Shown: in pieces, positions 1-17,119 of the stretch | How the letters are laid out: every line of letters begins with the position of its first letter | Numbering within the stretch: the stretch's first letter is position 1 | UHGV virus genome: UHGV-2147075 | Strand: one strand, 5' to 3' | Source: a virus | DNA: 17,404 bases | Notes under the pieces: model-generated | Told to the model about the DNA's origin: nothing | The model's database searches: none | What the model saw: only the letters and a program-made list of their open reading frames with translations | Translations under genes and position numbers: made by a program

Positions 1-1416
1 GTGAAACAAAGCACTATTGCACTGGCACTCTTACCGTTACTGTTTTCCCCTGTGACAAAAGCCCGGACACCAGAAATGCCTGTTCTGGAAAACCGGGCTG
101 CTCAGGGCGATATTACTGCACCCGGCGGTGCTCGCCGTTTAACGGGGGATCAGACCGCCGCTCTGCGTGATTCTCTTAGCGATAAACCTGCAAAAAATAT
201 TATTTTGCTGATTGGCGATGGGATGGGGGACTCGGAAATTACTGCTGCACGCAATTATGCCGAAGGTGCGGGCGGCTTTTTTAAAGGTATCGATGCCTTA
301 CCGCTTACCGGACAATACACACACTATGCGCTGAATAAAAAAACCGGCAAACCGGACTACGTCACCGACTCGGCTGCATCAGCAACCGCCTGGTCAACTG
401 GTGTCAAAACCTATAACGGCGCGCTGGGCGTCGATATTCACGAAAAAGATCACCCAACGATTCTGGAAATGGCAAAAGCCGCAGGTCTGGCGACCGGTAA
501 CGTTTCTACCGCAGAGTTGCAGGATGCTACGCCCGCTGCGCTGGTGGCGCATGTGACCTCGCGCAAATGCTACGGTCCGAGCGCGACCAGTGAAAAATGT
601 CCGGGTAACGCTCTGGAAAAAGGCGGAAAAGGATCGATTACCGAACAGCTGCTTAACGCCCGTGCCGATGTTACGCTTGGCGGCGGCGCAAAAACCTTTG
701 CTGAAACGGCAACCGCCGGTGAATGGCAGGGAAAAACGCTGCGTGAACAGGCACAGGCGCGTGGTTATCAGTTGGTGAGTGATGCTGCCTCACTGAATTC
801 GGTGACGGAAGCGAATCAGCAAAAACCCCTATTAGGACTGTTTGCTGACGGCAATATGCCAGTGCGCTGGCTAGGACCGAAAGCAACGTACCACGGCAAT
901 ATCGACAAGCCCGCAGTTACCTGTACGCCTAATCCGCAACGTAATGACAGCGTACCGACCCTGGCGCAGATGACCGACAAAGCCATTGAATTGTTGAGTA
1001 AAAATGAGAAAGGCTTTTTCCTGCAAGTTGAAGGTGCATCAATCGATAAACAGGATCACGCTGCGAATCCTTGTGGGCAAATTGGCGAGACGGTCGATCT
1101 CGATGAAGCCGTACAACGTGCGCTGGAATTCGCTAAAAAGGATGGCAACACGCTGGTCATAGTCACCGCTGATCACGCCCACGCCAGCCAGATTGTCGCG
1201 CCGGACACCAAAGCGCCGGGCCTCACCCAGGCGCTAAATACCAAAGATGGCGCAGTGATGGTGATGAGTTACGGGAACTCCGAAGAGGATTCACAAGAAC
1301 ATACCGGCAGTCAGTTGCGTATTGCAGCGTATGGCCCACATGCCGCCAATGTCGTTGGACTGACCGACCAGACCGATCTCTTCTACACCATGAAAGCCGC
1401 CCTGGGGCTGAAATAA
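1..1416 (+). CDS. phoA: alkaline phosphatase, periplasmic (complete; GTG start at window base 1)
   Basis: 471-codon ORF; translation recognisable as enterobacterial PhoA (signal peptide [15 protein letters not shown], catalytic-serine region [12 protein letters not shown], metal-ligand region TADHAHASQ); TAA stop at 1414-1416. Confidence 0.97.
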
Positions 1417-1534: not shown

Positions 1535-1567
1535 ATGAAAATAACATTACTGGTTACCTTGCTTTTC
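1535..1567 (+). pseudogene. psiF: 5' fragment of phosphate-starvation-inducible psiF, disrupted by prophage insertion
   Basis: ATG at 1535 with RBS GAAGAGGGATGG upstream; encodes MKITLLVTLLF, which matches the PsiF N-terminus as I recall it; reading frame then runs into the phage terminus and stops at TGA 1568-1570. Confidence 0.8.
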
Positions 1568-1645
1568 TGATGCGCCGCGCGATAAACGCACTCTATCTTG
1601 TGCGATAAATGGCATCCACGCGGCGTTTCATTATTTGAAAAAGAA
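1568..1645. mobile_element. prophage right terminus (attR-like; candidate transposase-binding sites)
   Basis: Read toward the end, the terminus is ...CATTTATCGCACAAGATAGAGTGCGTTTATCGCGCGGCGCATCA-3'. Phage Mu right end as recalled is ...CATTTATCGTGAAACGCTTTCGCGTTTTTCGTGCGCCGCTTCA-3' (same CATTTATCG block at the same distance, same CG-rich terminal block, terminal CA). Only 78 bp separate the terminus from the invertase stop. Confidence 0.65.
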
Positions 1646-2218
1646 TTACATTTCAGGTTGCGTTATGACAGTCCCAACAGGGTGATAGCGGTAGATCGTT
1701 GACAGTCCAATATCATAGATAATTGCCAGCCGCTTTCTGTCATACCCTTTCTGGAGCAATCTTGCGATCTGCTCATGCTGCTCCTTCGTCAGTTTCGGGC
1801 GACGTCCTCCAACTCTTCCTTGTGCTCGCGCAGCAGCCAGTCCTGCCAGCGTGCGCTCAACTATCAGTTCACGCTCCATTTCTGCCAGTGCACCCATCAT
1901 ATGAAAAAAGAACCTTCCCATCGGAGTGCTGGTATCGATTGAATCCGTCAGACTGCGAAAATTGACACCTTTTGCGCGTAGCTCTTCTGTGAGAGCAATG
2001 AGGTGTTTCATTCTTCTACCCAACCGATCCAGCTTCCAGACCACCAATGTATCCCCTCTTTTAAGGCACTTTAAAGCGCGTTTCAGGCCTGGTCGTTCCG
2101 ACTTGGTTCCGCTCATTTTGTCCTCAAAAATCTGTTCACATCCTGCGCACATTAATGCATTGCGTTGCAAATCTGTGTTTTGGTCATTTGTTGACACACG
2201 TATGTAGCCAATCAGCAT
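1646..2218 (-). CDS. site-specific DNA invertase, serine recombinase of the Gin/Pin/Cin/Hin family
   Basis: 190 codons from ATG at 2216-2218 (the ORF track extends upstream to a non-start position); N-terminus MLIGYIRVSTNDQNTDLQ with catalytic Ser, C-terminal helix-turn-helix; strongly resembles Mu Gin / e14 Pin as recalled; RBS GGGAG 8 nt upstream. Confidence 0.95.
   Translation of the reverse strand: MLIGYIRVSTNDQNTDLQRNALMCAGCEQIFEDKMSGTKSERPGLKRALKCLKRGDTLVVWKLDRLGRRMKHLIALTEELRAKGVNFRSLTDSIDTSTPMGRFFFHMMGALAEMERELIVERTLAGLAAARAQGRVGGRRPKLTKEQHEQIARLLQKGYDRKRLAIIYDIGLSTIYRYHPVGTVITQPEM
2065..2125. promoter_or_regulatory. candidate Fis-dependent recombinational enhancer inside the invertase 5' coding region
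   Basis: Two 15-bp Fis-like sites with G and C at the ends and AT-rich centres: GGCACTTTAAAGCGC (2065-2079) and GCTCATTTTGTCCTC (2111-2125), centres 46 bp apart, at about +101 and +147 of the invertase gene. In Gin/Hin/Cin systems the enhancer sits at this position. Confidence 0.35.
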
Positions 2219-2231
2219 TAAAAATACTCCC

Positions 2232-2259
2232 TTTTGAGTGGTTAAAGTACTGAGATAAT
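2232..2259 (+). promoter_or_regulatory. candidate extended -10 promoter reading into the invertible segment
   Basis: TGAGATAAT at 2251-2259 (TG-n-GATAAT) with weak -35 TTTTGA at 2232-2237 (16-bp spacer); divergent from the invertase gene. Sequence-pattern call only. Confidence 0.3.
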
Positions 2260-2272
2260 GTGGGGAGGATTT

Positions 2273-2298
2273 GAGAGATAAACGTTGGTTTAGGAGAA
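2273..2298. other. left crossover site for the invertase (gix/pix-like, 26 bp)
   Basis: GAGAGATAAACG-TT-GGTTTAGGAGAA; the inner half-site is identical to that of the right site, outer halves differ, and sequence identity between the two inverted repeats begins exactly at the central dinucleotide (2285-2286). Half-sites fit the Gin/Hin pattern (..TAAACC). Confidence 0.6.
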
Positions 2299-2478
2299 GG
2301 CTCGGCGCTACCCGTTGGTGTGCCTGTTCCGTGGCCCACCGCCACACCGCCAGCAGGCTGGNNNNNNNNNNNNNNNNNNNNNNNNNNNNNNNNNNNNNNN
2401 NCTGGCCAGAGTCTACCCGACCCTCCGTCTTCCCGATTTACGCGGTGAGTTTATCCGTGGATGGGACGACGGGCGCAA
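2285..2478. repeat. left inverted repeat of the invertible segment (contains the N gap)
   Basis: Reverse-complement identical to 3698-3896 wherever sequence is present; mapping is x to 6181-x before the gap and x to 6176-x after it. Confidence 0.9.
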
Positions 2479-2797
2479 AGTTGATACAGGACGTAAGTTG
2501 CTGTCCGCACAAGGGGCAACGCTGTTAAGAACAGCAATGCTGGATTATTATAACCAGGACACTACGGGAACCTCGGGGATAGTCGGCATGGGATTCAACA
2601 ATGAAGATTCCATTACAGACCTTCGTGAGGGCAGCTTTAAAATGCCGGACGGGACAACATTCAGCAATCCTGTCATGGCAATGTCAGACAATGGTATGCA
2701 GGCTACTATTCTGACCTCTATCAGAAGCGGGTATGCGAAGGGTATCACTGTCAGACCCCGTAGCATTGCACTTAATTACATTGTGAGGGCAGTTTAA
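2287..2797 (+). CDS. alternative tail-fibre C-terminal cassette (no start codon; fused to the fibre gene only after inversion)
   Basis: Open frame from the crossover site to TAA at 2795-2797. The first ~65 codons are the inverted-repeat copy of the fibre constant/variable junction (...LGEGSALPVGVPVPWPTATPPAGW, gap, LARVYPTLRLPDLRGEFIRGWDDGRK), then a divergent variable end ...RPRSIALNYIVRAV. The frame is continuous only if the gap is 45 nt. Confidence 0.8.
2362..2401. other. assembly gap (40 N) inside the left inverted repeat
   Basis: Run of N; the intact right copy (3775-3819) is 45 nt across the same interval, so the gap is an arbitrary-length placeholder that is 5 nt short. Confidence 0.95.
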
Positions 2798-3411
2798 TGA
2801 GTAACACTGCAGTTCTGGATGAAAACGGTATCGCCACTGTAGCGGGCGATATCACTGTATATCACTATGACGAGGAAACCCGGGAATACACCTCATCCTC
2901 TGTGGAGTATCTCGCCCTTGGGGTGGGTACTCCGGCACATTCGTGCGCCGATGCACCGCCGGAGGCAATTTCGGGTTACGTGGTTTGTCGGACTGCCACG
3001 CTGAACGGGTGGGAGCATGTGCCTGATCACCGCGGCGAGACGGTATACAGCACGGAGAACGGTAACCCCGTTCTGATTACCCAACCGGGTGATTACCCGG
3101 CGGACACCACCACAAAACAGCCAGCCACGCCATGGGATACCTGGAACGGTGAGGCGTGGGTAACCGATACTGAACGGCAGCGAGCCGCAGAACTGGAGGT
3201 TGCCAGACAGCAACGCCAGCAACGGGTGAAACAGGCGATGGCGTCCGTCGATCTTATCAACCTCAAACTGCGTGCTGGTCGCAGTCTGACACCAGAAGAA
3301 ACGGCAAAACTGAACGCCGTGCTGGATTATATCGACGAGCTGAACGCACTGGATATCAGCACGGCACCTGAAATCAGCTGGCCGGAAGCGCCACTGGCAC
3401 TTGCCAGTTGA
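2797..3411 (+). CDS. tail fibre assembly chaperone (Tfa; Mu U / P2 G-like)
   Basis: 204 codons; ATG overlaps the cassette stop (TAATG); C-terminal region ...LNAVLDYIDELNALDISTAPEISWPEAP is typical of the conserved Tfa C-terminus; SD-like GAGGG upstream. Confidence 0.88.
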   Translation: MSNTAVLDENGIATVAGDITVYHYDEETREYTSSSVEYLALGVGTPAHSCADAPPEAISGYVVCRTATLNGWEHVPDHRGETVYSTENGNPVLITQPGDYPADTTTKQPATPWDTWNGEAWVTDTERQRAAELEVARQQRQQRVKQAMASVDLINLKLRAGRSLTPEETAKLNAVLDYIDELNALDISTAPEISWPEAPLALAS

Positions 3412-3417
3412 ACGGTA

Positions 3418-5010
3418 TCACGCCGCCCTCACGATATAGTTAAACGCGATATTGCGGGGGCGGGTTATGTTAAAGAATGCTCCGTTTAATACGGCTTTTG
3501 CGCGACTGTTTGTTCCACCCAGCATTGCGTACCACAAATAATCGCTACGGTAATTCCCCGCAAACACCTTATCGCCGCCATAGTCAATATTATTTCCGTT
3601 ACTCATGTACGAGATATCAAGCGAAGAATCGTTATCGTCATGACCGCCGACCAGTGTACCTTTCTGCCATGAAAGCAACTTACGCCCCTCGTCAATCTTG
3701 CGCCCGTCGTCCCATCCACGGATAAACTCACCGCGTAAATCGGGAAGACGGAGGGTCGGGTAGACTCTGGCCAGAACAGGATATTGTTCTTTGGTGAACG
3801 TAGCTCCGTTGCACTGTAACCAGCCTGCTGGCGGTGTGGCGGTGGGCCACGGAACAGGCACACCAACGGGTAGCGCCGAGCCTTCTCCTAAACCAAGGTA
3901 ATTGAGGACATCTTTTATACTGCCCTTAGCGATAATAGCGCGACCAATAGCTGTAAGGGTTGCCAGCGCTGCGCGGTCTGCTCCGGTAAAATAAGGCAAC
4001 CGATCTGCTGCAGTGGCAAGCCCTGCCAGAGCAGTGAGCGTGGCATCTGCCGGTTGTTTTCCGTTTGCCAGATCGTATGCAGCCTTGACCGCTTTCGGTG
4101 TGGCGGCCAGTATTTCAGACGTGCTGTTGATGGCACTGCTCAATTGTACGGTGCCTTTTGCCGTCAGCGAGGCAGCAGGCACTCCCGTTATCTGACTCCA
4201 CGGGTGAGTGTGGCTGACGGGCGCCTTGCCGGCTGCAAGGTCGTATGCAGCCTTGACCGCCTTCGGCGTGGCAGCCTCAGTTTCTGATTGACTGTCCGTG
4301 GCGCTGCTCAGTTGTACGGTGCCTTTTGCCGTCAGCGAGGCAGCAGGCACTCCCGTTATCTGACTCCACGGGTGAGTGTGGCTGACGGGGGCCTTGCCGG
4401 CAGCCAGGTCATATGCAGCCTTGACGGCCTTTGGTGTGGCGGCCAGCGTTTCAGAGGTGCTGTTGGTGGCACTGCTCAGTTGTACGATCCCTTTACGGGT
4501 CGTTGTTGCATCCTGGGCTGTGTATTTTCCCCGGGCCAGATCATACGCGATTTTCACAGCCTTCGGCGTGGCAGCCTCAGTTTCTGATTGACTGTCCGTG
4601 GCACTGCTCAGTTGTACGGTGCCTTTTGCCATCAGCGAGGCAGCAGGCACTCCCGTTATCTGACTCCACGGGTGAGTGTGGCTGACGGGTGCCTTGCCGG
4701 CTGCAAGGTCGTATGCAGCCTTGACGGCTTTTGGTGTGGCGGCCAGCGTTTCAGAGGTGCTGTTGGTGGCACTGCTCAGTTGGGTGAACCCCTTAGCTGT
4801 CAGTGTCGCGTCCGGGTGGTTACGGGAACGCACGTGTTCAGCCAGTGACTGTGCGGCTTCCTCCGTTTTCTTCTTCAGCCATTTCGTCCTGTTTGCCAGT
4901 TGCCGGGGGGCTCGATTTGATATCCCGTCAGCACCACCCAGAACCGGATCTGATGTCTCCAGTTGATAGATATTTTCTTCCCACTTTTCTGTTTCATTCA
5001 GGTTTCCCAT
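3418..5010 (-). CDS. tail fibre protein (constant part plus currently joined variable C-terminus)
   Basis: 530 codons from ATG at 5008-5010 (SD GGGAG upstream, 2 nt after the upstream gene stop; the TTG at 5016 used by the ORF track is less likely). Five tandem copies of a ~56-aa phage-fibre repeat (KG.VQLSSAT.S.SET.AATPKAVK.AYDLA); the gene crosses the right crossover site; C-terminus ...NITRPRNIAFNYIVRAA. Confidence 0.92.
   Translation of the reverse strand: MGNLNETEKWEENIYQLETSDPVLGGADGISNRAPRQLANRTKWLKKKTEEAAQSLAEHVRSRNHPDATLTAKGFTQLSSATNSTSETLAATPKAVKAAYDLAAGKAPVSHTHPWSQITGVPAASLMAKGTVQLSSATDSQSETEAATPKAVKIAYDLARGKYTAQDATTTRKGIVQLSSATNSTSETLAATPKAVKAAYDLAAGKAPVSHTHPWSQITGVPAASLTAKGTVQLSSATDSQSETEAATPKAVKAAYDLAAGKAPVSHTHPWSQITGVPAASLTAKGTVQLSSAINSTSEILAATPKAVKAAYDLANGKQPADATLTALAGLATAADRLPYFTGADRAALATLTAIGRAIIAKGSIKDVLNYLGLGEGSALPVGVPVPWPTATPPAGWLQCNGATFTKEQYPVLARVYPTLRLPDLRGEFIRGWDDGRKIDEGRKLLSWQKGTLVGGHDDNDSSLDISYMSNGNNIDYGGDKVFAGNYRSDYLWYAMLGGTNSRAKAVLNGAFFNITRPRNIAFNYIVRAA
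3698..3896. repeat. right inverted repeat of the invertible segment
   Basis: Reverse-complement identical to 2285-2478; similarity decays gradually inward past 3698. Confidence 0.9.
3883..3908. other. right crossover site for the invertase (gix/pix-like, 26 bp)
   Basis: TTCTCCTAAACC-AA-GGTAATTGAGGA; lies inside the fibre coding sequence (codons for ..LNYLGLGEG..); same core dinucleotide as the left site when both are read inside-out. Confidence 0.6.
4057..4797. repeat. coding tandem-repeat array inside the tail fibre gene
   Basis: Near-identical DNA blocks, e.g. CAGTTGTACGGTGCCTTTTGCCGTCAGCGAGGCAGCAGGCACTCCCGTTATCTGACTCCACGGGTGAGTGTGGCTGACGGG at about 4306 and 4606, with a further copy near 4141; corresponds to the 5 protein repeats. 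Confidence 0.85.
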
Positions 5011-5012
5011 AA

Positions 5013-5591
5013 TCAACTGCTCCCGTGGTTATAACTGCCATCATGGATGGCGGTATTGTTATAGCGAATAGCCACAGACTGATACTCCAGGCTGGCCAGA
5101 TGGCAGCGGGCCGGTGCAAATGCAGCGAGCGTCTGACGCAGCATCGCGGCCTGATCGTTAGTAATGGGCTGTTTCAGAATAACGCGATAAACCGCCCAGG
5201 CGGCTGCATCTCCATGAACAAACAGTCCGTTATAGCTGCGATTGCCGTCGTAACTGAGACGACCTGTGCCTTCAATCAGATCCACTTCACCAAAGCCAAA
5301 ACGGCGGATAACTTCCCGGATTGACCACGGCGTCCCTTTATACTGGTGTAGTTCGATGGCTGCTTTTATAAGCATGCGGCGAACATCGTCCGATTCCGCC
5401 AGCTCCCAGCCATCGCCGAACAGTGAGAACTGCTCTCCCAGCCATGGCAGCGCGGAACTGTCGACGATATCGACGAGATAGACCATCAGTACGCTCAGGT
5501 CGATGTTATCCAGCCGCCCGGCCAGTCTTCCCAGCGTTCTGAGGCTGATATCCCCCTCAAGCGGTGGCGGGAGTTGTAGCGGCTCAGCCAT
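5013..5591 (-). CDS. baseplate/tail protein, P2 gpI-like (Mu gp48-like)
   Basis: 192 codons, ATG at 5589-5591 overlapping the upstream stop; size, position between the J-like gene and the fibre, and a central motif (...ELHQYKGTPWSIREVIRRFGFG...) fit the tail-protein-I family. Confidence 0.8.
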   Translation of the reverse strand: MAEPLQLPPPLEGDISLRTLGRLAGRLDNIDLSVLMVYLVDIVDSSALPWLGEQFSLFGDGWELAESDDVRRMLIKAAIELHQYKGTPWSIREVIRRFGFGEVDLIEGTGRLSYDGNRSYNGLFVHGDAAAWAVYRVILKQPITNDQAAMLRQTLAAFAPARCHLASLEYQSVAIRYNNTAIHDGSYNHGSS

Positions 5592-6687
5592 CGGACACCC
5601 TGGTCATGTTAAGTGTGATCGCCGTACAGTTTGCCCATTCGTTTTCTGCCACCACCCGCAGTGCCGGTGTCACCAGCTCAACCTGGTACACCCCGGAAAC
5701 GGACAATGCACTGATAATCTGGCTGGGGACAATATCGCGCCCCAGCGTGGCGGCACGTGATGCCACCCAGTTCTGGATGGCACTGTTGGCGGCATCTTTT
5801 ACAGACCCGGCATCCTGATCACGATAGATCGTAATCCTGGCTTCAATGGCATAATCCACCTGCACAGGTGTTTTAGCCCGCACGGTATCAGTGAGCGGCC
5901 TGACTTTCTCATCAGAGCAGAAACTCTCTACCAGCGTGAGAACACCGCCGTCCGGCAGACCGGTACTGAGCAGCGGATACAGATCTACGGTGCCGGGAAC
6001 CGGGGAAAGCACAGCAACATCGACAATGTTGGGATGGGCCTGCATGGCATGAAAGCGGTATGCGCCACGGCTTCCGGCATTGGTGAATGACTCCGGGGCC
6101 AGTCTGATACGCTCCCGGAGCCTGTCATCGTCTTCCTGTTCTGAACCGCCGGAACTGGCCGTCAGATTGCTCACCAGCAGGTCGACGTTATCAATCTCAT
6201 CGAGTAACTGACTGACCTGCGCAGGTTGCCAGCCGTTACCAGCGGTACCGGGTTCGGTACAGGTGGCCGTGACATTGACCAGCAGCAATCCGGCCTTCAG
6301 TACCACATCTGTATCGGTGGCAAAAATAACGCTGTCGGAAGCGCTGACGCGGGTACCCGCCGGAATCAGCACGTCAATGGCCAGTGCCTCATCCACGGAG
6401 AACTGGAGCGTGGTGGTGGCAGGCTGCGCGGCAAGGCGGTAAACACCGACCAGTTCACCGAGGTAATCAATCATCGGCTCACGGGCAAAGGCGACCAGAT
6501 TCTGTTTGGCTATTTCCTGCGCCGCTACCCTGACCAGCATTTCGCGGTATGCCCACAGGTCAATCAACAGGCGCTCAGCCTGAGCGGGGTACAGCGTTTT
6601 GCCGGTTGCGGCTTCGTACTGTGCAATCATTTCAGCCGTGATTTTGTCGGCATCACGTTCAATAAAATCGGGTTCTGTCAGCGCCAT
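5584..6687 (-). CDS. baseplate protein, J-like (P2 gpJ / Mu gp47 family)
   Basis: 367 codons; ATG at 6685-6687; typical position and size; overlaps both neighbours. Confidence 0.85.
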   Translation of the reverse strand: MALTEPDFIERDADKITAEMIAQYEAATGKTLYPAQAERLLIDLWAYREMLVRVAAQEIAKQNLVAFAREPMIDYLGELVGVYRLAAQPATTTLQFSVDEALAIDVLIPAGTRVSASDSVIFATDTDVVLKAGLLLVNVTATCTEPGTAGNGWQPAQVSQLLDEIDNVDLLVSNLTASSGGSEQEDDDRLRERIRLAPESFTNAGSRGAYRFHAMQAHPNIVDVAVLSPVPGTVDLYPLLSTGLPDGGVLTLVESFCSDEKVRPLTDTVRAKTPVQVDYAIEARITIYRDQDAGSVKDAANSAIQNWVASRAATLGRDIVPSQIISALSVSGVYQVELVTPALRVVAENEWANCTAITLNMTRVSDG

Positions 6688-7025
6688 AGCAACTCCTGAG
6701 TCCGGGGCTGTCCGTCAGAGCCTTTCCAGCTCACCCGGAGCGTAAGATGTTCGCCGTCGACGGCGGGTTTAACCGACATAAGCTGGCAGCGAGGCTCCCA
6801 GCGCCGGATGGCATCGACAGATTCGCGCACCACATGAGGAATGGCCCGGTTTACAGGCCAGTCGATATAAAGATGCAGATTGCTGCCGAACTCTGGGCGA
6901 TGCGGGTCGCTGCCACGGGGAGTTCGCAGGATAATTTGAATCGCCTGCCAGATATCATCCAGCCCCCGGACAATTTCGCCGGGAGCCTGCAGGGCCGGTT
7001 GCCAGAATACGGAAGTTGTTTTCAT
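6678..7025 (-). CDS. baseplate protein, GPW/gp25-like
   Basis: 115 codons; motif ...IWQAIQIILRTPRGSDPHRPEFGSNLHLYID...AIRRWEPR is characteristic of the GPW/gp25 family. Confidence 0.85.
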   Translation of the reverse strand: MKTTSVFWQPALQAPGEIVRGLDDIWQAIQIILRTPRGSDPHRPEFGSNLHLYIDWPVNRAIPHVVRESVDAIRRWEPRCQLMSVKPAVDGEHLTLRVSWKGSDGQPRTQELLWR

Positions 7026-7026
7026 G

Positions 7027-7071
7027 GGGGCAGTATTGCCCCTGTGCGGGAACGCCGATATTAAAGGCGTT
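7027..7071 (-). promoter_or_regulatory. two adjacent RNA hairpins in the V-W intercistronic region
   Basis: On the mRNA strand: AACGCC-9 nt loop-GGCGTT (7051-7071), then GGGGCA-ATAC-TGCCCC (7027-7042) ending 1 nt before the W-like ATG; no unpaired SD for that gene. Confidence 0.3.
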
Positions 7072-7079
7072 TAAGAAGG

Positions 7080-7592
7080 TCAGTGGGAATGGTGATTAGA
7101 GTTCTGGCCGTCAGACAGCATGCTACCTGTGGAGTGGGCATTGCCGTTGATTTCAAGGTTGCCGTTCACCGTGGTGGTGTCAGCGGTCAAATCAATGGTT
7201 TTCCCCTTCAGGCTGATACCTACCGCAACCTCGATTACTACGCGCTCGATACCACCTTTGACCGTCAGCGTATGGGTCGCGCGGTTATAGCTGAACTCTG
7301 CGCCATCCGCGTATTTCGTGCCCCGGACGTTTTTGTCGCTGAACGGTGGCTTATCGACGCCTGAGTACACCGCGCCCAGAATGACACCATCCTCGCCGTT
7401 GGCATCGAGCAGCACCTCAACCTGCTCCCCCACGTCAGGGAGCCAGTAATCCTTGTTATCCTGGGTGTTGCGCTGGAGTACGTTAAGCCAGTTAGTGCGC
7501 AGGTTATCGCACTCAGGCAGACGAACGCGGGCCTGAACCTTGTCGGCATCGACGGCGCTGACCGTACCGACCTGACGGGTGACACCTGCCAT
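7080..7592 (-). CDS. baseplate assembly protein V-like (spike)
   Basis: 170 codons; ATG overlaps the upstream TAA; N-terminal region ...GTVSAVDADKVQARVRLPECDNLRTNWLNVLQ...WLPDVGEQVEVLL...GVILGAVY is typical of the gpV family. Confidence 0.85.
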   Translation of the reverse strand: MAGVTRQVGTVSAVDADKVQARVRLPECDNLRTNWLNVLQRNTQDNKDYWLPDVGEQVEVLLDANGEDGVILGAVYSGVDKPPFSDKNVRGTKYADGAEFSYNRATHTLTVKGGIERVVIEVAVGISLKGKTIDLTADTTTVNGNLEINGNAHSTGSMLSDGQNSNHHSH

Positions 7593-8761
7593 TATTTCTT
7601 CTCCTTTGTTACCGTAGATGTGCTGCCGTCCGGTTTATAGACGGTCAGTGTCTGACTCTTGCCGGTCTTTTTACCTTTCTTCGCCTTGCCCTGCGTGACC
7701 GGCCCTCGCGCCACCTCCAGTTCGGTGATATAGCCGCTGTTGCGGTCAAACGCATGGCGGGCAGTGGTTATCAGCCATGGCCCGGATAACTGTCCAAAAC
7801 CCACCAGTTCAATTTTGTTGCCTGCAGTCAGTTGAGGTGTTCCCGTCAGCGTCAGGGAGCCGTTCTGCTGGTATTCGTTATGCCTGGCCAGCGCCGAATC
7901 CGCTTTAATCCGGGCGCTGTCCGGGTCGCTGACGCGGCTGTTGACCTTCAGTGAGTCGGCACTGGTGACCTTACCGCCTTTGGTTTGTTTGTCGCTTTCA
8001 CGGGTACCACCATCAGCTTCGTAGACGATCAGTTTTTTACTGCTGCTTTTCTGGTGTTTTACCTTTGCAGATTTATAGACCCGGTTGATGGTGTCACGCA
8101 GGGAAAAGCGGGCCACATCCTGCGGTTTTAACTGCCTGACCGGCTCCTGACTGCGCAGTGTGGCCAGATGAGAAAAAATCAGCTGGTCACTGACCACTTT
8201 CACTGCATAACCATACTCGCTGGCCAGCCGGCGCAGAAAACCCACGTCCGTTTCAGCATACTGGGTCACCCGGTCGATTCTGATGGACTCAATGCTGCCC
8301 ACCAGTTTCAGTCGGTGCTTTCTGGCAATCCGCCCCGCAACAGCTGCCAGCGTGGTGTTCTCAAAACCACGACTGGTTTTAGTCCGCAGGGCACTGTTAA
8401 CCGAGGTGGCCACCCCACGGATAGAAACAACGGAAGCGGGCGAACTCACTTCGATCTCGTCTATAGAGAACGTACCGCAGGACAGCAGCTTCTCGCCCTG
8501 ATAGCCCATTTTCAGCGTCAGCGTGTCACCCTTGCCCGGATACCATTTATCCAGCCAGCGGCCATCGGTGTCGTCCAGTTCCACCTCAATGGTATCGGAC
8601 TCATTTTTGATGTTATCGCTCCAGGTCACACGGGTGACATAAGGCGCGATATCAGAGGTGATGTTTTTCTGCAGATACCACAGAGTGAACACCGGTGTCA
8701 GCACATCGCTGACGCCGGTTAACGCTGATGTGACTTGCGCAGTGCTGTTTATCTCAGCCAT
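7592..8761 (-). CDS. tail protein, P2 gpD-like (late control D / Mu gp44-like baseplate hub)
   Basis: 389 codons; size, position after the X-like gene and N-terminal region fit the phage D family. Confidence 0.85.
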   Translation of the reverse strand: MAEINSTAQVTSALTGVSDVLTPVFTLWYLQKNITSDIAPYVTRVTWSDNIKNESDTIEVELDDTDGRWLDKWYPGKGDTLTLKMGYQGEKLLSCGTFSIDEIEVSSPASVVSIRGVATSVNSALRTKTSRGFENTTLAAVAGRIARKHRLKLVGSIESIRIDRVTQYAETDVGFLRRLASEYGYAVKVVSDQLIFSHLATLRSQEPVRQLKPQDVARFSLRDTINRVYKSAKVKHQKSSSKKLIVYEADGGTRESDKQTKGGKVTSADSLKVNSRVSDPDSARIKADSALARHNEYQQNGSLTLTGTPQLTAGNKIELVGFGQLSGPWLITTARHAFDRNSGYITELEVARGPVTQGKAKKGKKTGKSQTLTVYKPDGSTSTVTKEKK

Positions 8762-8961
8762 GGGGCAATATCCTCTTCTGTACGGGCTTCTTCAGCCTCA
8801 ATCACCGGGATCAGTAACAACAGCCCGGAGGGCAGCACCGGCGTGATGGCCACGTGCGGATTGGCGGCAATAATCCGGGGATAGCCCAGCGGGTCACCGT
8901 AGTACTGCCATGCCAGCGAATCCCAGCGCTCTCCGTCACGGGTAACATGTTCAAGAAACAT
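8749..8961 (-). CDS. tail protein X-like (LysM-like fold)
   Basis: 70 codons from ATG at 8959-8961 (SD GAGGAG with 6-nt spacer; the GTG at 8964 used by the ORF track is less likely); motif RDGERWDSLAWQYYGDP...IIAANPHV...LPSGLLLLIPV matches the tail-protein-X family. Confidence 0.8.
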   Translation of the reverse strand: MFLEHVTRDGERWDSLAWQYYGDPLGYPRIIAANPHVAITPVLPSGLLLLIPVIEAEEARTEEDIAPWLR

Positions 8962-9845
8962 CACACACTCCTCGTCAGTATTCTGGCGGCCATTGCACTT
9001 AATCCCGGAGACATGCGGTTGAATGCTGTGCCGGCGGCGTTAAGCTGCCCGGAAACGGTATCCAGAGCACCTGCAATATTTCTTTTGTCCACACCACTCA
9101 GCGCAGACTGTGCCTGCTGTACATACGTGGCTGCTTCGCTGGCTGTTCTGGCCAGACTGATGGCATCGGGCATGGATTCAGAGAGTGCGTTAAACGCCGG
9201 AACACTTTTCCCCAGAGCCCCGGATATATTACCCAGTCCGCTCATCAGCCCCGGCACACGGGTCAGTGCGACAACGGGGTTATCCTTCATTTTCTGTGTC
9301 ACCCGAACGGCTCTGATAGTGGTCTGGAGTACAGACTGCGCCTGTTTCGCATAGTTGACGCCGTTGCGGATGAACTGCGCCACCCCTGAAGGTGAAGGAA
9401 TGGCACCGGAGACCGCCCCGACACCCGGGAGCTTCGTGCGTATTGCCGGTGGTTGCAGAGGATTTTTCGGATCACCGGTGTATTCCCGGAGAGACACGGT
9501 GGCACTGACAGCCAGCACGTTACCGGTGCTGTCTGTCTGCTCGCTGGTTGCGGTCACATCGGTAATCACGAACCAGCCACGATAGTCACCGTTGCCGAAG
9601 ACCAGCGCCAGTGCCTGATGGGCTTTCATGGTTGTTCGCAGTCTCGCCAGCTCCACATCGGGTACACAATAATGCTGATGGAAGACCAGACTTATCTGGA
9701 TTTCGTCCAGCCTGTCGCCGACGAACTGCAGGCCAGGCTTACCCCCGATGCGGGCATGCTCCGCATAATCGACGCCGAACGTGGCCTCGAAGCCGTCCCA
9801 GTAGGTAATCAGCTCAAACTCAATATCACCCAGTACGGCAAACAT
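8961..9845 (-). CDS. tail protein, P2 gpU-like N-terminal domain with C-terminal extension
   Basis: 294 codons; ATG overlaps the tape-measure stop (TGATG); N-terminal ~120 aa (...GWFVITDVTATSEQTDSTGNVLAVSATVSLREY) resembles the gpU family; Ala/Ser/Gly-rich C-terminus. Confidence 0.7.
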   Translation of the reverse strand: MFAVLGDIEFELITYWDGFEATFGVDYAEHARIGGKPGLQFVGDRLDEIQISLVFHQHYCVPDVELARLRTTMKAHQALALVFGNGDYRGWFVITDVTATSEQTDSTGNVLAVSATVSLREYTGDPKNPLQPPAIRTKLPGVGAVSGAIPSPSGVAQFIRNGVNYAKQAQSVLQTTIRAVRVTQKMKDNPVVALTRVPGLMSGLGNISGALGKSVPAFNALSESMPDAISLARTASEAATYVQQAQSALSGVDKRNIAGALDTVSGQLNAAGTAFNRMSPGLSAMAARILTRSV

Positions 9846-12796
9846 CAGCGGTACTCCTTACGTTGTTTCTGAGCCAGCAGACGCTCCAGCATTTTTTCCA
9901 GCTCATGCAGACTCATATTCAGGGCACCAGTCAGTCCTGCAGGCGCTGTGGTTTCCTTGCCATTGAGGAAAAACTGAGGATTAAAGCTGACCTGGATACC
10001 ACCAGACGTTCCACCGCCGGTTGCAGCTGCACCACGGCCTGAATATCCGGCAGCCAGGATTTCAGACGAGGGGATACGGGGAACATCCGGTGTCATCTCA
10101 TTTGCCAGACGTTGCCCTGGTAAAATCGATGCCCGGGTGGAGAGCGGAATAACGGGCATGGAAGACAAACTATTGATTACGGCTCCGATCGCATTTTTAG
10201 CAGACGACATAAACCCGTTGATATCGGGCAACGGCATACTGAAGCGAACACCTGAAGTGTTATCCCGTATTTCTGGCCCCTGGATGCTCACGGGCATTCT
10301 GGGGAGCAGTTCACTGGCCATTCGCTGCCCGGCCAGAGCTGCAAGCGGAGTGGTCCGCTGCAGGCCAATGGCGGCCCCCTGCGCGATATTGTCACCAAAG
10401 CCCATAAACACGCGGCTCGGCGAATGAATGCCCAGCTTTTCGCTGAACCAGCCACTGATGCTGTCACCCATTCCGGTTACACTGGATTTGAGCGACTCCC
10501 ATTTGTTTTTGATACCGTTAATCAGACCATCGACAAGATGGCCACCGAAGTCGGTAAACTTTGCCGGCAGATCAACACCAAGATATTTCAGCGCAGCTGC
10601 AAAGGCTTTATAGAGCAGACCTGCCGGCGACCAGTTAATCAGCAGCTTACCAGTTCCCGCGATACCGCCGTTAAAGGCTTCCTGAATGTCAGCCCAGCAC
10701 TGTTTAAACCAGCTACTGATGCTGTCACCCATTCCGGTTACACTGGATTTGAGCGACCCCCATTTGTTTTTGATACCGTTAATCAGACCGTCGATAAGAT
10801 GGCCACCGAAGTCGGTGAACTTTGCCGGCAGAGCAACGCCGAAATATTTCAGCGCAGCCGCAAAGGCTTTATAGAGCAGGCCTGCCGGCGACCAGTTAAT
10901 CAGTAACTTACCAATTCCCACAATGCCGCCGTTAAAGGCTTCCTGAATGTCTGCCCAGCGCTGTTTAAACCAGCCACTGACTGCCCCCCAGTTGCGGTAG
11001 ATAAGGTAAGCTGCTGCCGCGACAGCGGTGATAACGAGACCGATGGGATTCATCATCAGCGCACGCCCAATCCAGAGAACAGCACGTCCGGCGAGCATAA
11101 TTCCGCGAACCAGCCCCCCGGAGAGCACGCCACTCAGTGTTCTGGCTCCTCTGGCGACGGCGCTAAATCCGGTCACCAGCCAGCGGAGCTTACCGCCTTG
11201 CCCCAGTGCGAGCGACAGACGAAGCCAGTTGGCCCGAAGTAAAACAGCATTTTTCCAGACACTTACAAAGGGGGAAATAAGGAGATTCAGCCCCAGTTTG
11301 AGACCAACAGTCGCTATCTTAATCGCAAGGAGCGCACTGATGAGCTTAAAAGCCCCACTGACAAATTGCGGGTGAGTCGCTACCCAGTGTTTTGCCCCCT
11401 GAATGAGTGGAAGCAGTTCCTGAGTCAAAGAAATAAAAGATGGAGCTAATTGATCGCCCAGCGTAATTGCCAGATCGCGACTGCTGACCATAAGTGTTTT
11501 AGTGGCTTCAAGGGGAGATTTCAGCCGCTGATCATAAGCACTGGCAAGCAAATCGTTATCCGCAGCCCTGAGAGCACCGGCACGGATCTCTCGATATCTG
11601 TCCATGTTGGCCAGCATCGGGCGGATAAATGCCATGACCTGCATATCCGCGAACATATCGCCCAGACCAAAGTTTTTCGCCAGAGCCTGAAGTGCCTCAT
11701 CTCTTGCCGTATCATTCTTTATTTTCATGGCTGATTTGAAGCCGGCCAGCGCTTCGGGGCTTTTGGCATTGAGGTAACGTTCTATAACACTCAACATCCC
11801 TTCAATCGGAGAGATCCCCGCAGCTTTATAACTCGCAATAGATCCCTGCAAATCAATACCCAGATCAGCAAACTGTTTCTGAGTATCGCGGGCAAAAATT
11901 TTGGTAAGAAAGTTTTTAAAATTATTGGCTGCTTCGTCGGTGGAACCTGCACCGATTTTTGCTATCTGGAGACTGGCCCCGATTTCAGCAACAGCCTCTT
12001 TTCCACTGGCAATACCCGCCATCATTGGGGCCAGGGACTGCATCCACTTGACCTGATCCGGGATTTCAAATGACCCCTGGTCACCGGCATAAGCCATAAT
12101 ATTCTGAACGGCACCAAAATCTCTGGCCGCACCTTTCAGGGAGTTTTGCCAGACTGCGGCCACTTTTGCCCAGTCCTGAGCAGACGTGCGTGTTGCCGTT
12201 GCCGCGCGGGCAATATCCGGCATCAGAAAACCGATATCTGACACATTATCAATATTGTCGCTGATGAGTGAACCCACCGCCTCCTGCAGCTCATCCTGAT
12301 ACTGATTGTATTTAAGCGCCCAGCCTTTTATCTGTCCGGCAAGTCCATCCCGCGTTTTATTGTCATATTTTGCGGTGATCGACATATCAATCATTTTGTC
12401 CTGAAAAGACATGGACTGCTGAACGGCAGGGGAAACCGTATGATAAACAGTCTGTGCCATGCCATACGCTTCAATCCCCTGACCATACAGCGCCATGCGG
12501 TTAGCTTTCAGCGCATCACTGGTAGCGGATGCCGCTGACAGACGGCGCTGCTGGCGCTCAATTTGCTCCATGGTGCGGCTTACCCGCAGCAGCTCGCTGT
12601 TGAGATGCTGCATCCGGGAAGAACCCAGTTGACCATAACGTTCTGTTGCACGGGTTAAAGCGTTCTGACGTTCCTGCAGGCGGCGTGAGGTATCGCTCAG
12701 GGAATCAAGCGCACGGCGGGTACCGCTCATTGCAGAACGGAATGTGCTACCAATCATCCCGCCGATAACAACGCCGACTGAAAACTGTCCCGACAT
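9845..12796 (-). CDS. tail tape measure protein
   Basis: 983 codons; strong SD GGAGG upstream of ATG at 12794-12796; largest gene, between the chaperone ORFs and the U/X/D genes; contains an internal tandem duplication. Confidence 0.88.
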   Translation of the reverse strand: MSGQFSVGVVIGGMIGSTFRSAMSGTRRALDSLSDTSRRLQERQNALTRATERYGQLGSSRMQHLNSELLRVSRTMEQIERQQRRLSAASATSDALKANRMALYGQGIEAYGMAQTVYHTVSPAVQQSMSFQDKMIDMSITAKYDNKTRDGLAGQIKGWALKYNQYQDELQEAVGSLISDNIDNVSDIGFLMPDIARAATATRTSAQDWAKVAAVWQNSLKGAARDFGAVQNIMAYAGDQGSFEIPDQVKWMQSLAPMMAGIASGKEAVAEIGASLQIAKIGAGSTDEAANNFKNFLTKIFARDTQKQFADLGIDLQGSIASYKAAGISPIEGMLSVIERYLNAKSPEALAGFKSAMKIKNDTARDEALQALAKNFGLGDMFADMQVMAFIRPMLANMDRYREIRAGALRAADNDLLASAYDQRLKSPLEATKTLMVSSRDLAITLGDQLAPSFISLTQELLPLIQGAKHWVATHPQFVSGAFKLISALLAIKIATVGLKLGLNLLISPFVSVWKNAVLLRANWLRLSLALGQGGKLRWLVTGFSAVARGARTLSGVLSGGLVRGIMLAGRAVLWIGRALMMNPIGLVITAVAAAAYLIYRNWGAVSGWFKQRWADIQEAFNGGIVGIGKLLINWSPAGLLYKAFAAALKYFGVALPAKFTDFGGHLIDGLINGIKNKWGSLKSSVTGMGDSISSWFKQCWADIQEAFNGGIAGTGKLLINWSPAGLLYKAFAAALKYLGVDLPAKFTDFGGHLVDGLINGIKNKWESLKSSVTGMGDSISGWFSEKLGIHSPSRVFMGFGDNIAQGAAIGLQRTTPLAALAGQRMASELLPRMPVSIQGPEIRDNTSGVRFSMPLPDINGFMSSAKNAIGAVINSLSSMPVIPLSTRASILPGQRLANEMTPDVPRIPSSEILAAGYSGRGAAATGGGTSGGIQVSFNPQFFLNGKETTAPAGLTGALNMSLHELEKMLERLLAQKQRKEYR
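10424..10980. repeat. in-frame tandem duplication (2 full copies of 261 bp plus partial flanking copies) within the tape measure gene
   Basis: Copies offset by exactly 261 bp (e.g. CCAGCCACTGATGCTGTCACCC at 10448 and CCAGCTACTGATGCTGTCACCC at 10709); the protein shows WFKQ[RC]WADIQEAFNGG...GMGDSIS[SG] twice, 87 aa each. Confidence 0.9.
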
Positions 12797-12871
12797 AGTG
12801 GTTAACCTCCGGGGAAGGTGAAAAGACGTGAGGGGATAACGCAGAACAGCCGCTACTGGCGGCTGTCTGTA

Positions 12872-13289
12872 CTATGATTTGTCGCCGTACTCGCTTTTTA
12901 TTTGCTCTTCAGCCTGCTCCAGCCACATCTCCAGATCGTCAGTATCGAGGGCATCAATCTCCCCCGGCTGAAACCGGAACCATCTCGCCAGCAGCCCCTG
13001 CGCCTGCGTCAGCGCCCTGGTTGCTCTCACCCATCCCCGTGATGAGCTGAAATCGTTTCTGTAACTGCAGGTAATCAGCCAGATCCATATTGTCGAGATC
13101 TTCCGGGAGAAGACCAGTACTGCGGGCAATCAGCGGTTCGTCCCAGTCTGCCGGGTTTTTGCTGATTTTGCGCACCTGCTTCAGGTCTTTTACCGTCAGG
13201 CGTTTCAGTTCAACCAGCTCAATTCTGGTGCCTGCAGCAGTGGTGAAGGGATAAGACAATTTAAAAGTATCGGATGGGGTCTGTGACAT
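12872..13289 (-). CDS. predicted frameshifted chaperone fusion product (E+E' analogue), made by a +1 or -2 shift near 12957-12965
   Basis: A second frame is open from 13129 to TAG at 12872-12874 with no credible start of its own (TTG only); it is the +1 frame relative to the chaperone gene and overlaps its 3' end. Confidence 0.45.
12954..12968 (-). promoter_or_regulatory. candidate recoding site: G5 run immediately before the chaperone stop codon
   Basis: mRNA reads GCC GGG GGA GAU UGA in the zero frame and CCG GGG GAG AUU GAU in the extension frame. Confidence 0.4.
12954..13289 (-). CDS. tail assembly chaperone (P2 gpE / lambda G analogue)
   Basis: 111 codons; ATG at 13287-13289 with SD AGGAG; position between tube and tape measure; Leu/Asp-rich pattern ...ELKRLTVKDLKQV...LLPEDLDNMDLADYLQLQKRF typical of this chaperone class; acidic Gly/Ala-rich C-terminus. 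Confidence 0.75.
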   Translation of the reverse strand: MSQTPSDTFKLSYPFTTAAGTRIELVELKRLTVKDLKQVRKISKNPADWDEPLIARSTGLLPEDLDNMDLADYLQLQKRFQLITGMGESNQGADAGAGAAGEMVPVSAGGD

Positions 13290-13352
13290 GATTGTGCTCC
13301 TGTGTAAGTTCAGGGCAGTATGTCGGGAGAAGCGCGTGACGGATATTAAAGG

Positions 13353-13379
13353 AGATTAAGAAGAAGGGGCCGGAGCCCC
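13353..13379 (-). terminator. weak terminator-like hairpin between the small ORF and the chaperone gene
   Basis: mRNA GGGGC-UCCG-GCCCC (13366-13379) followed by the pyrimidine-rich UUCUUCUU; not a clean U-tract. Confidence 0.25.
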
Positions 13380-13386
13380 TGTGATG

Positions 13387-13668
13387 TCAGCAAGTGCGAA
13401 ACCCCTTGCAGTTACGCAGGAAAGCGATGAGAAGCGTCTTTCCCTCAGATTTGCCGATGCCGGAGAACCAGTGGTCGGGAGGCTCCCATGCTTCAATCAA
13501 ATCCGCCAGTTTGCGGGCCTTTGAACGTGTGCAGTCAATCGGGTCATTGGTTTTACGGGTATTAAAAAGGGTTTCCACCCCCGGAATATCAAGGAGGGTA
13601 AACCACGTACCATTTGACATGCCCAGTGCCGCACATCGTCCTCCTTTATCCGTCAGTTCAACACTCAC
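13387..13668 (-). CDS. hypothetical protein (uncertain coding assignment)
   Basis: 93 codons starting at GTG 13666-13668, 2 nt after the tube stop; no family recognised; a 97-codon ORF on the opposite strand (13394-13687) overlaps it completely. Confidence 0.4.
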   Translation of the reverse strand: MSVELTDKGGRCAALGMSNGTWFTLLDIPGVETLFNTRKTNDPIDCTRSKARKLADLIEAWEPPDHWFSGIGKSEGKTLLIAFLRNCKGFRTC

Positions 13669-13670
13669 CG

Positions 13671-14192
13671 TCAGCCCCCGATATTGATACGGTAGTCAGT
13701 CAGTTGATCAACACCGCCGACCCGGAAGATGTTGGCCAGATAGTCCAGTTGCAGCAGCTCTTCACCATCCAGTACCTGTCTGATATACGTGCAGGTGAAG
13801 CTACTGGAGAACTCGGCGTTCTCGTGCTGTTTGAACGTCCCCAGCGGGTTCTTCTTGAACATAATCGTCAGGAAGGTGACCAGCGGGATTTCGTCAATCA
13901 GCCCCTGCGAGCTGTAGCGCTGGACGCTGGAACGACACTGCAGTGCCAGCGACCTGTACGGGTTCGCGGCAGACAGCATCGCATCGCGGTAAAAGCTGTT
14001 CCATTTGATTTCGCCTTCCAGTTTGTCAAAACCAGCCGGGAGTTCCACCTTACCCACCATCCCCAGCGCCTTGTGTTCCTGCATAATCATGGAGACATCG
14101 GGGAGTTTAACTTCCTCAGCCCGTCCCAGCAGGTTAGTACCATCCAGATAGATGTTGGCATTCGTGATGCGGTTTATCTCAATCTTTGACAT
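13671..14192 (-). CDS. tail tube protein (Mu M / P2 FII-like)
   Basis: 173 codons; ATG overlaps the sheath stop; size and position immediately after the sheath gene. Confidence 0.88.
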   Translation of the reverse strand: MSKIEINRITNANIYLDGTNLLGRAEEVKLPDVSMIMQEHKALGMVGKVELPAGFDKLEGEIKWNSFYRDAMLSAANPYRSLALQCRSSVQRYSSQGLIDEIPLVTFLTIMFKKNPLGTFKQHENAEFSSSFTCTYIRQVLDGEELLQLDYLANIFRVGGVDQLTDYRINIGG

Positions 14193-15619: not shown

Positions 15620-15863
15620 GGGTGTCCTCCGTTTTCACTTCGCTGTCACTGCTGCTTCTGCGCTTTGGTGACTGCACAGCCGGTGTGCCGGCGGGTTTAG
15701 TCTCTTCAGGTACCGGCGTCAGATGTTTCAGCGCCACCAGTACCTTCACGTAGTCATGCTCCTCCGGCAGGGAAACCGTCTTCCCCGGCCAGAGCAGGAT
15801 TTCGGTTCCGTCCGACAGCGTGACGCCGCTGGCCGGGCCGGAATAGCGGTATTCTTTCATCAC
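15609..15863 (-). CDS. small phage protein upstream of sheath (Mu gp38-position)
   Basis: 84 codons from GTG 15861-15863 (or 83 from the adjacent ATG 15858-15860); SD AGGAAAG upstream; overlaps the sheath start by 11 nt; function assigned by position only. Confidence 0.6.
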   Translation of the reverse strand: MMKEYRYSGPASGVTLSDGTEILLWPGKTVSLPEEHDYVKVLVALKHLTPVPEETKPAGTPAVQSPKRRSSSDSEVKTEDTHGS

Positions 15864-16324
15864 TCGCTTTCCTCATAGTTCACTTCGGTTAACAGCGGGC
15901 CGGACGGTAAATCGCTGTCTTCGATAAAGACGCTTTCAGTCGCGAAGTCGAGGGCGTACTGCCACAGCCCCCTGACTTCACCGATAAACACCTCGCGGGT
16001 CAGCCAGATACGGCGGCGGCAGCCGGGCGGGGTGTGGCCACCGAGAATGCGGCGGACAGCATCCAGGACATTAATCGCCCCTTTTTTACCGTTGAGCTGG
16101 CGGAAGACCACCGTGACGCAGAGCTGGATAGTCTGAGACTGGATCACCGCACCGGTATCATCCGGCCTGTCAAAGCGCGAACCGGCATAGCTCAACAGCA
16201 ACGCGCCAACCGGATGGTTCAGGCGATATTCAGCCGGTTTCTCCGGGAAGTACTCCACCTGCAGTTGCGGCAGCTTCTCGCGTAACCGGGCCAGTACCGC
16301 ATCAAGGACGGGCAGAACGTTCAT
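15860..16324 (-). CDS. phage protein, Mu gp37-position (probable tail completion/terminator)
   Basis: 154 codons; ATG at 16322-16324 overlapping the upstream stop (ATGA); assigned by synteny. Confidence 0.65.
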   Translation of the reverse strand: MNVLPVLDAVLARLREKLPQLQVEYFPEKPAEYRLNHPVGALLLSYAGSRFDRPDDTGAVIQSQTIQLCVTVVFRQLNGKKGAINVLDAVRRILGGHTPPGCRRRIWLTREVFIGEVRGLWQYALDFATESVFIEDSDLPSGPLLTEVNYEESE

Positions 16325-16770: not shown

Positions 16771-16771
16771 G

Positions 16772-17110: not shown

Positions 17111-17119
17111 AACGCCTCC

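Follow-up and report, generated by a model that had tools for sequence, protein, structure and literature searches.

A psiF gene of Escherichia coli interrupted by a probable BcepMu-group transposable prophage

The stretch of DNA analysed here in full, which we call the window (17,404 nucleotides, UHGV virus genome UHGV-2147075), begins with bacterial genes and enters a prophage that runs on past the window's end. Its features are the following.

1–1416, plus strand: phoA (alkaline phosphatase), an intact host gene upstream of the insertion; an open reading frame of 471 aa, 100% identical to E. coli phoA annotations
1535–1567, plus strand: 5′ remnant of psiF, 11 codons (MKITLLVTLLF); the same as nucleotides 1–33 of K-12 psiF, followed by divergence
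1562–1567, no strand: CTTTTC, predicted copy of a 6-bp target-site duplication, the second copy of which would lie beyond the window
1568–1645, plus strand: invertase-side terminus of the prophage, the equivalent of the BcepMu right end, with a terminal TG and two direct subterminal repeats
1646–2218, minus strand: Gin/Hin-type small serine DNA invertase of 190 aa (Pfam Resolvase, 8e-51, and HTH_7)
2282–3899, no strand: invertible tail-fibre segment of 1.6 kb, with inverted repeats of ~224 nt (2282–2505 and 3671–3899; 92–99% complementarity)
2797–3411, plus strand: tail-fibre assembly chaperone, within the invertible segment and at present opposed to the fibre gene (Pfam Caudo_TAP, 3.5e-28)
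3418–5016, minus strand: tail fibre of 532 aa, with Phage_fiber_2 repeats and a Collar domain (Pfam)
5013–9845, minus strand: baseplate and tail genes of the P2 type, corresponding to gpI, J, W, V, D, X, and U (annotations of relatives; tblastn)
9845–12796, minus strand: tail tape-measure protein of 983 aa (31% identity to BcepMu gp44; annotation of relatives)
12954–15619, minus strand: tail assembly protein, a small open reading frame, tail tube (13671–14192), and tail sheath (14192–15619)
15609–17404, minus strand: genes for head completion and for the connector, followed by the major head gene, of which the 3′ end is included; they correspond to BcepMu gp38 to gp34

The reference named in several of these lines is Burkholderia phage BcepMu (AY539836; genus Bcepmuvirus), reportedly described by Summer et al. 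in 2004. The host flank (1–1567) matches several complete E. coli genomes with an intact psiF at 100% identity, SCU-172 and MS 21-1 among them. The host is thus E. coli, and the empty site is present in its closest relatives. The first 33 nucleotides of K-12 psiF are exactly those of the window at 1535–1567 (ATGAAAATAACATTACTGGTTACCTTGCTTTTC), and the match stops at the break between 1567 and 1568, beyond which K-12 reads GGTCTGGTT and the window reads TGATGCGCCGCGCG / TGATGCGCCGCGCGATAAACGC. This bears out the claim of an earlier, sequence-only reading of this DNA that psiF is cut after codon 11. The truncated frame is ended by the TGA at the tip of the phage (1568–1570), and the strain, in which the upstream phoA is intact, is left with a null allele of psiF.

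The position of the terminus was established with a query of 301 nt spanning the break. Its host half matched every genome, and its phage half (1568–1720) is found at 97–99% identity in many complete E. coli genomes, where it adjoins unrelated genes (flgA, yeiB, irp1, irp2, mdfA, ecpC, cirA, dcuC, nfrB, a prophage lom, and others). According to the flanking genes, this terminus occupies at least 19 distinct loci. When nine copies are compared base by base, their flanks diverge up to the base preceding TGATGCG, which places the terminus exactly at 1568. The inserted DNA had been said to begin with the TG at this position, and this is where the homology among independent copies starts. It had also been said to lie in a protein-coding gene and not in a tRNA gene or att site, which agrees with the multiplicity of loci and with the full copies that lie inside genes, around which the host gene is split into two annotated halves.

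The terminus contains two direct repeats, G-N-GCGATAAA, at 1579–1586 and 1602–1609, with a period of 23 nt. The arrangement GCGATAAA-N15-GCGATAAA occurs a single time in the window (1579–1609), where none is expected, and the likeness of the two repeats to R1 and R2 of Mu makes them putative transposase-binding sites. The sequence-only reading had found the first ~45 bp to resemble the right end of Mu, and alignment to the Mu reference (AF083977) confirms a likeness above chance. An ungapped alignment in register has 23 matching bases among 45, a value reached by 16 of 100,000 shuffles, but also by 22 of the 73,346 45-mers of Mu. With gaps, there are 33 identities over 48 nt (score 13); random 48-mers of Mu score 3.1 ± 1.6, and 4 of 20,000 do as well. 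Both of the blocks that had been named are present, i.e. the CG-rich terminal block and CATTTATCG (CGATAAATG on the strand of the window), yet their spacing, given as that of Mu, is off by one base: the two CGA(T/A)AAA blocks are separated by 23 nt in the window and in BcepMu, and by 22 nt in Mu.

The end of the window's prophage is closer to the right end of BcepMu than to that of Mu. Without gaps, it shares 27 of 45 bases with the former, the best-matching 45-mer of the whole BcepMu genome, and the gapped alignment to BcepMu has 36 identities over 48 nt, a result matched by none of 20,000 random 48-mers. The opposite, Mor-side end of the relatives described below matches the left end of BcepMu at 29 of 45 positions and carries GAGATAAA/GAGATATT at the positions of the two blocks. 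TG...CA ends and similarity to R1 and R2 are what one finds in a Muvirus, but they do not discriminate, because they are common to all Mu-like and B3-like phages (PMC8705779). We also considered that gin and the right end might have been captured together as a module from a Mu-like phage. This idea was rejected, since the right end of BcepMu, a phage without gin, fits the window better than that of Mu.

The genes of the window tell a similar story. We compared 20 of its open reading frames with phage genomes by tblastn, and 16 of them match BcepMu between 20.7 and 33.1 kb, in strict order, with 31–76% amino acid identity. Within this series, the genes at 5013–9845 are collinear with BcepMu gp51 to gp45, also in strict order (39–63% amino acid identity), the tail tube and sheath are 67% and 76% identical to gp40 and gp39, respectively, and the genes at 15609–17404 are collinear at 49–52% identity and remain 98–99.6% identical to relatives at the nucleotide level up to the window edge. 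The N-terminus of the tail fibre resembles BcepMu gp52 (tblastn match at 32895–33077 of BcepMu). The same search against Mu yields only the invertase, a 48-residue fibre stretch or repeat, and a marginal baseplate match (E ~9e-4). Sp18 of O157 Sakai was tried as the E. coli counterpart and dismissed: it is a prophage of Mu layout, and only the invertase and one connector protein match it. At the nucleotide level, 85% of the phage part aligns to Escherichia phage PhiKM (PQ738613.1, a partial genome) with 97.3% identity, and the GenBank taxonomy line places PhiKM in Bcepmuvirus.

The invertase, whose gene lies 78 bp from the psiF junction, is 76% identical in amino acids to Gin of Mu and to the invertase of Sp18. 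Next to it, the invertible segment holds alternative C-terminal parts of the fibre and one assembly chaperone. Its left arm includes a run of 40 N (2362–2401), in a place where the right arm has 45 nt. In four of five relatives (L001, L003, L004, and L005), the stretch 2402–3899 aligns in reverse, and 2402–3462 has the same orientation as in L006; both orientations are therefore observed, which means that the inversion happens in nature. Sequences at the outer edges of the inverted repeats were tentatively read by eye as gix-like, and a search for the Mu gix site allowing up to 8 mismatches gave none. We propose that the Gin-like invertase flips the 1.6-kb segment and thereby swaps the C-terminal part of the tail fibre, which would act as a host-range switch.

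The genes of the transposase, ATPase, and repressor are not within the window and are known from relatives only (95–99% identical). We sampled nine copies in total, of which five were retrieved in full and another three at each of their two junctions; the named relatives include Ecol_448, SCU-101, AVS0501, CE10, and LSC52. Of 5,426 complete E. coli genomes, 632 contain the Mor-side end, at 695 places, and some genomes hold two or three copies of the element. Full copies measure 36.4–38.5 kb, start with TG, and end with CA. Starting from the end seen in the window, they encode the invertase, the invertible fibre segment, the P2-type baseplate and tail, the Mu-type head, and the lysis genes. Then come a divergent CI-type repressor and an operon reading outward, made of an HTH protein, a DUF3102 protein, a DDE transposase of 589 aa, an ExeA-like AAA+ ATPase, Gam, small genes, gp16/GemA, and Mor. 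The last of these stops 162 bp short of the terminus. Genes for A and B and a repressor had been expected at the far end, but in the relatives this end is occupied by gemA and mor, and the transposase and repressor are found further inside (~5–6.7 kb and ~8.3–8.7 kb, respectively). The layout is thus not that of Mu, as had been expected: invertase and tail-fibre genes do adjoin the end, but the early operon of the relatives reads outward, towards gemA and mor.

The transposase of the relatives is 69% identical to BcepMu gp09, which GenBank labels as an rve transposase of the Tn552/IS1604 type. BLASTP between this 589-aa protein and MuA gives no similarity (E 0.4). Its only Pfam domain is rve, without those specific to Mu, and the adjacent ATPase matches AAA_22/AAA_16. 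No tyrosine or large serine integrase is annotated in the five fully annotated relatives, the only recombinases of which are the DDE protein ('integrase catalytic domain') and the small invertase. A tyrosine integrase with att repeats had been put forward as the observation that would speak against transposition; none is annotated in the relatives and the insertion sites vary. The many loci, the TG...CA ends, the short duplications, and the lack of a tyrosine integrase together indicate DDE transposition and not site-specific integration.

All eight of the full copies have TG...CA ends abutted by direct repeats of 6 bp, and these duplications differ between sites: ATTTTC, ATTTTT, GTTTTT, ATGTGC, ATTTAC, CCCTTT, ATTTGC, and TCTTCG. 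A seventh matching base is ruled out wherever the sequences are informative, and with a duplication of five, one further shared base would go unexplained; the relatives thus have duplications of 6 bp. Such a length is the footprint of transposases of the B3/Tn552 family, and that of Mu is 5 bp (PMC8705779). The duplication of 5 bp (TTTTC, 1563–1567) predicted earlier is thus probably one base short. By comparison with the relatives, the target in psiF would be CTTTTC (1562–1567, codons 10–11), and the other junction should read ...ATCA, CTTTTC, then GGTCTGGTT, some 36–38 kb on. In its fuller form, the predicted junction is (A/G)ATCA, CTTTTC, GGTCTGGTTTTTTTAACC. The members of the group in E. 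coli appear to favour T-rich 6-bp targets, with an NTTTTN-like sequence at 5 of 9 sites.

Searches for the source genome were negative. The near junction (GGTTACCTTGCTTTTCTGATGCGCCGCGCG) and the far junction, the latter in two predicted forms, were sought as exact patterns in genome_contigs, viral_contigs, and metagenome_contigs, without a match. The junction between psiF and the prophage is likewise absent from the 5,426 complete E. coli genomes, and the contigs that contain exactly the PhoA of the window all have an intact psiF, among the 24 blocks read out of 7,658. Given that the near junction is missing as well, the negative scans mean only that these collections do not include the source genome.

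These results very probably make positions 1568–17404 one half, that with the invertase and tail genes, of a temperate transposable myovirus of the BcepMu group (Bcepmuvirus), of ~36–38.5 kb, inserted in psiF. The assignment is based on the rve transposase and ExeA-like ATPase of the relatives, the collinear Mu-like head and P2-like tail, the BcepMu-like TG...CA ends, the 6-bp duplication, the many insertion loci of the relatives, and the nucleotide relatedness to PhiKM. It retains one part of the sequence-only reading, which had described a Mu-like transposable prophage in psiF: the transposable lifestyle and the insertion by transposition stand, and the family and layout are replaced by those of the BcepMu type. 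Elements of this type are described with TG...CA termini and an Rve core (PMC2628397), and recent surveys mention Bcepmuvirus prophages of E. coli (10.1101/2022.05.07.487787; PMC12629997). The element belongs to an already described and common group of E. coli prophages.

One alternative is that the prophage is a true Muvirus, like Mu, D108, SfMu, and Sp18, with MuA and MuB, a 5-bp duplication, and c-ner-A-B at its far (left) end. The terminal TG, the 33 identities of the 48-nt end to the Mu right end (with 4 of 20,000 random 48-mers of Mu doing as well), and an invertase 76% identical to Gin that adjoins the end as in Mu are all in line with this possibility. We nevertheless regard it as very improbable. 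The BcepMu right end fits better than that of Mu, the structural open reading frames have no matches in Mu beyond the 48-residue fibre stretch and the marginal baseplate hit, and only one frame besides the invertase matches Sp18, so that head and tail proteins homologous to those of Mu are lacking in the window by tblastn. In the relatives, the transposase has the rve domain alone and no BLASTP similarity to MuA, the duplications are of 6 bp in eight of eight, and the early region is inverted relative to Mu: neither MuA/MuB, nor a 5-bp duplication, nor a c-ner-A-B left end with late genes reading right is found. At the level of the relatives, a Mu-type prophage is already refuted. An even smaller chance, close to nil, is left to a P2-like (Peduoviridae) or other site-specific prophage whose recombinase would have acted at an att site in psiF. 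The tail and baseplate genes are indeed of the P2 type (gpI, J, W, V, D, X, U, sheath, and tube) and there is a recombinase gene at 78 bp from the junction, but the latter encodes a Gin-type invertase of 190 aa and no integrase; the relatives lack tyrosine integrases, and the head genes and Mor, GemA, and Gam are those of transposable phages. The integrase and fixed att core repeat typical of site-specific temperate phages are not found. Identical termini occur at many unrelated loci, with duplications that differ in sequence from site to site, and this multi-locus distribution already refutes site-specific integration.

A less remote possibility, which we still consider improbable, is that the BcepMu-type element in the source genome is a rearranged or truncated copy, with its invertase-side end in psiF and its other end not joined to the rest of that gene. 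Such a copy could result from recombination between two prophage copies, from deletion, or from inversion by intramolecular transposition. Genomes with two or three copies offer substrates for recombination, one of the nine sampled copies (in cirA of SCAID WND1-2022) has no far end at 36–39 kb, and that of CE10 bears an IS3 element and several pseudogenes. The predicted far junction was not found in the scanned collections either, but the near junction is missing from the same scans, which then show only that the source genome is absent. Against a rearrangement, eight of the nine relatives that we sampled are simple insertions between the two halves of the target gene, and the 15.8 kb of prophage visible in the window are intact and collinear with the relatives, at 95–99.6% nucleotide identity.

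For the BcepMu-type element, analogy with Mu, B3, and Tn552 suggests how the insertion may have arisen. A phage of this type would have infected the strain, and its DDE (rve) transposase, acting together with the ExeA-like AAA+ ATPase, would have bound the subterminal G-N-G(C/A)GATAWWW repeats at both ends. The 3′-OH of the terminal ...CA would then have been joined to a psiF target cut with a 6-bp stagger at CTTTTC, and repair of the gaps would have duplicated the six target bases. The expected outcome is a psiF remnant of 11 codons stopped by the phage TGA, with phoA left whole. The element may be active at present.

Hence, E. coli harbours two unrelated lineages of transposable prophages, the Mu/Sp18 type and the BcepMu type, the latter in ~12% of complete genomes. 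As these lineages differ in the length of the duplication (5 bp versus 6 bp), in transposase, and in layout, junctions have to be predicted with the right model. A 'Mu-like end' can give the right lifestyle and the wrong family, which matters little beyond correct annotation. The right ends of both lineages have a terminal TGA-GCG-CGC-CGA block followed by a CGATAAAT block one helical-repeat-and-a-bit inward. One might speculate, though we hold this to be rather doubtful, that the Mu and BcepMu lineages keep a single architecture for right-end recognition in spite of transposases without similarity detectable by BLAST, and that the E. coli members of the BcepMu group prefer T-rich targets. If either the architecture or the preference was previously undescribed, it would bear on the evolution of end recognition and target choice.

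Among known systems, Mu and Sp18 resemble the prophage of the window in being transposable phages that insert almost anywhere, in the TG...CA ends and two-block architecture of the right end (with the 33 identities over 48 nt mentioned above), in the Gin invertase (76% in amino acids) and invertible fibre segment adjoining this end, and in the Mor, GemA, and Gam homologues of the relatives. They differ from it in the transposase and 6-bp duplication of the relatives and in the tail and head proteins of the window, which are not Mu-like by tblastn. Furthermore, the left end of Mu is occupied by c, ner, A, and B, which read inward, whereas the far end of the relatives has mor, and the BcepMu-type element of E. 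coli lacks mom and com. B3 and Tn552 share the 6-bp footprint (PMC8705779) and, to judge from the GenBank label of BcepMu gp09, a transposase family; B3 is a siphovirus whose genes are organised differently, and Tn552 is a plain transposon.

BcepMu is much closer. The gene order of the relatives over the whole element is that of BcepMu (mor, gemA ... ATPase, transposase ... repressor; lysis, Mu-like head, P2-like tail), and it has TG...CA termini and a right end with two blocks at the 23-nt spacing. The host here is E. coli, and there are differences around the tail fibre: BcepMu has the acyltransferase gp53 past this gene, where the E. coli phage has the Gin-like invertase and the invertible segment, and the fibre body and chaperone of the E. 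coli phage have no match in BcepMu. The closest systems are PhiKM and the BcepMu-like prophages of E. coli. The latter differ from the element of the window in inserting at sites other than psiF and, in four of five, in the opposite orientation of the invertible segment; all are collinear with it, at 95–99.6% nucleotide identity, and have an identical terminus.

Six-base-pair target duplications were found at the junctions of eight relatives of the prophage, taken from the near-identical full-length copies (L001, L003–L006) and from the junction sequences L017–L022: ATTTTC, ATTTTT, GTTTTT, ATTTAC, ATTTGC, CCCTTT, TCTTCG, and ATGTGC. For the copy in the window, we predict the duplication CTTTTC at 1562–1567. 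The consensus target of Mu is N-Y-(G/C)-R-N. The middle of the 6-bp duplications is rich in T, and these nine sites, which include the predicted one and make up the whole sample, therefore hint that the target preference of the BcepMu-type prophages of E. coli differs from the Mu consensus.

The tail-fibre region carries the following features, given with their positions in the window:
2282–3899, invertible tail-fibre segment, bounded by inverted-repeat arms
2362–2401, run of 40 N, within the left inverted-repeat arm

The segment is flipped relative to four of the five near-identical relatives (L001, L003, L004, and L005); in the other one (L006), the stretch 2402–3462 is oriented as in the window. 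In the window orientation, no assembly-chaperone gene follows the tail-fibre ORF (3418–5016) in the same direction; the chaperone gene (2797–3411) faces it. The counterpart of the masked run in the right arm (3775–3819) is 45 nt long, so the 40 N probably stand in for 45 nt of tail-fibre coding sequence. The tail fibre also contains internal tandem repeats (4066–4782, self-match offset of ~168 nt) made of Phage_fiber_2 units, whose copy number varies among relatives and is higher in L003. A further duplication lies in the tape-measure gene (10446–10998, offset of ~261 nt, aligned blocks of ~290 nt).

Several copies in other E. coli genomes show features of their own. In A24 (NZ_CP028751.1; L020, 289–1395), mor is separated from the terminus by an additional ~1.1 kb, which contains two hypothetical ORFs, and the terminal sequence is a variant, …CATGTCTGATCA in place of …CAAGTCTAATCA. 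The Mor-side end, opposite the invertase, thus has a variable cargo slot. In SCAID WND1-2022 (NZ_CP102947.1; L023/L024), the invertase end adjoins cirA; the Mor-side end was searched for 36–39 kb away and not found, and fruBKA lies there instead, which suggests that this copy is truncated or rearranged. The CE10 copy has an IS3-family insertion (L005, 36059–37236) and several genes with internal stops, and looks like a decaying copy inside another prophage. IAI39, AR_0013, and N32 likewise carry it at this lom site.

Two lineages of transposable prophages that are unrelated to each other occur in E. coli, one of the Mu/Sp18 type and the other of the BcepMu type. The Gin-like invertase cassette of Sp18, the Mu-like prophage of O157 Sakai (L016), is ~76% identical to that of the window and is located at the same end, a likeness in sequence and position suggesting that the two lineages have exchanged their host-range module.
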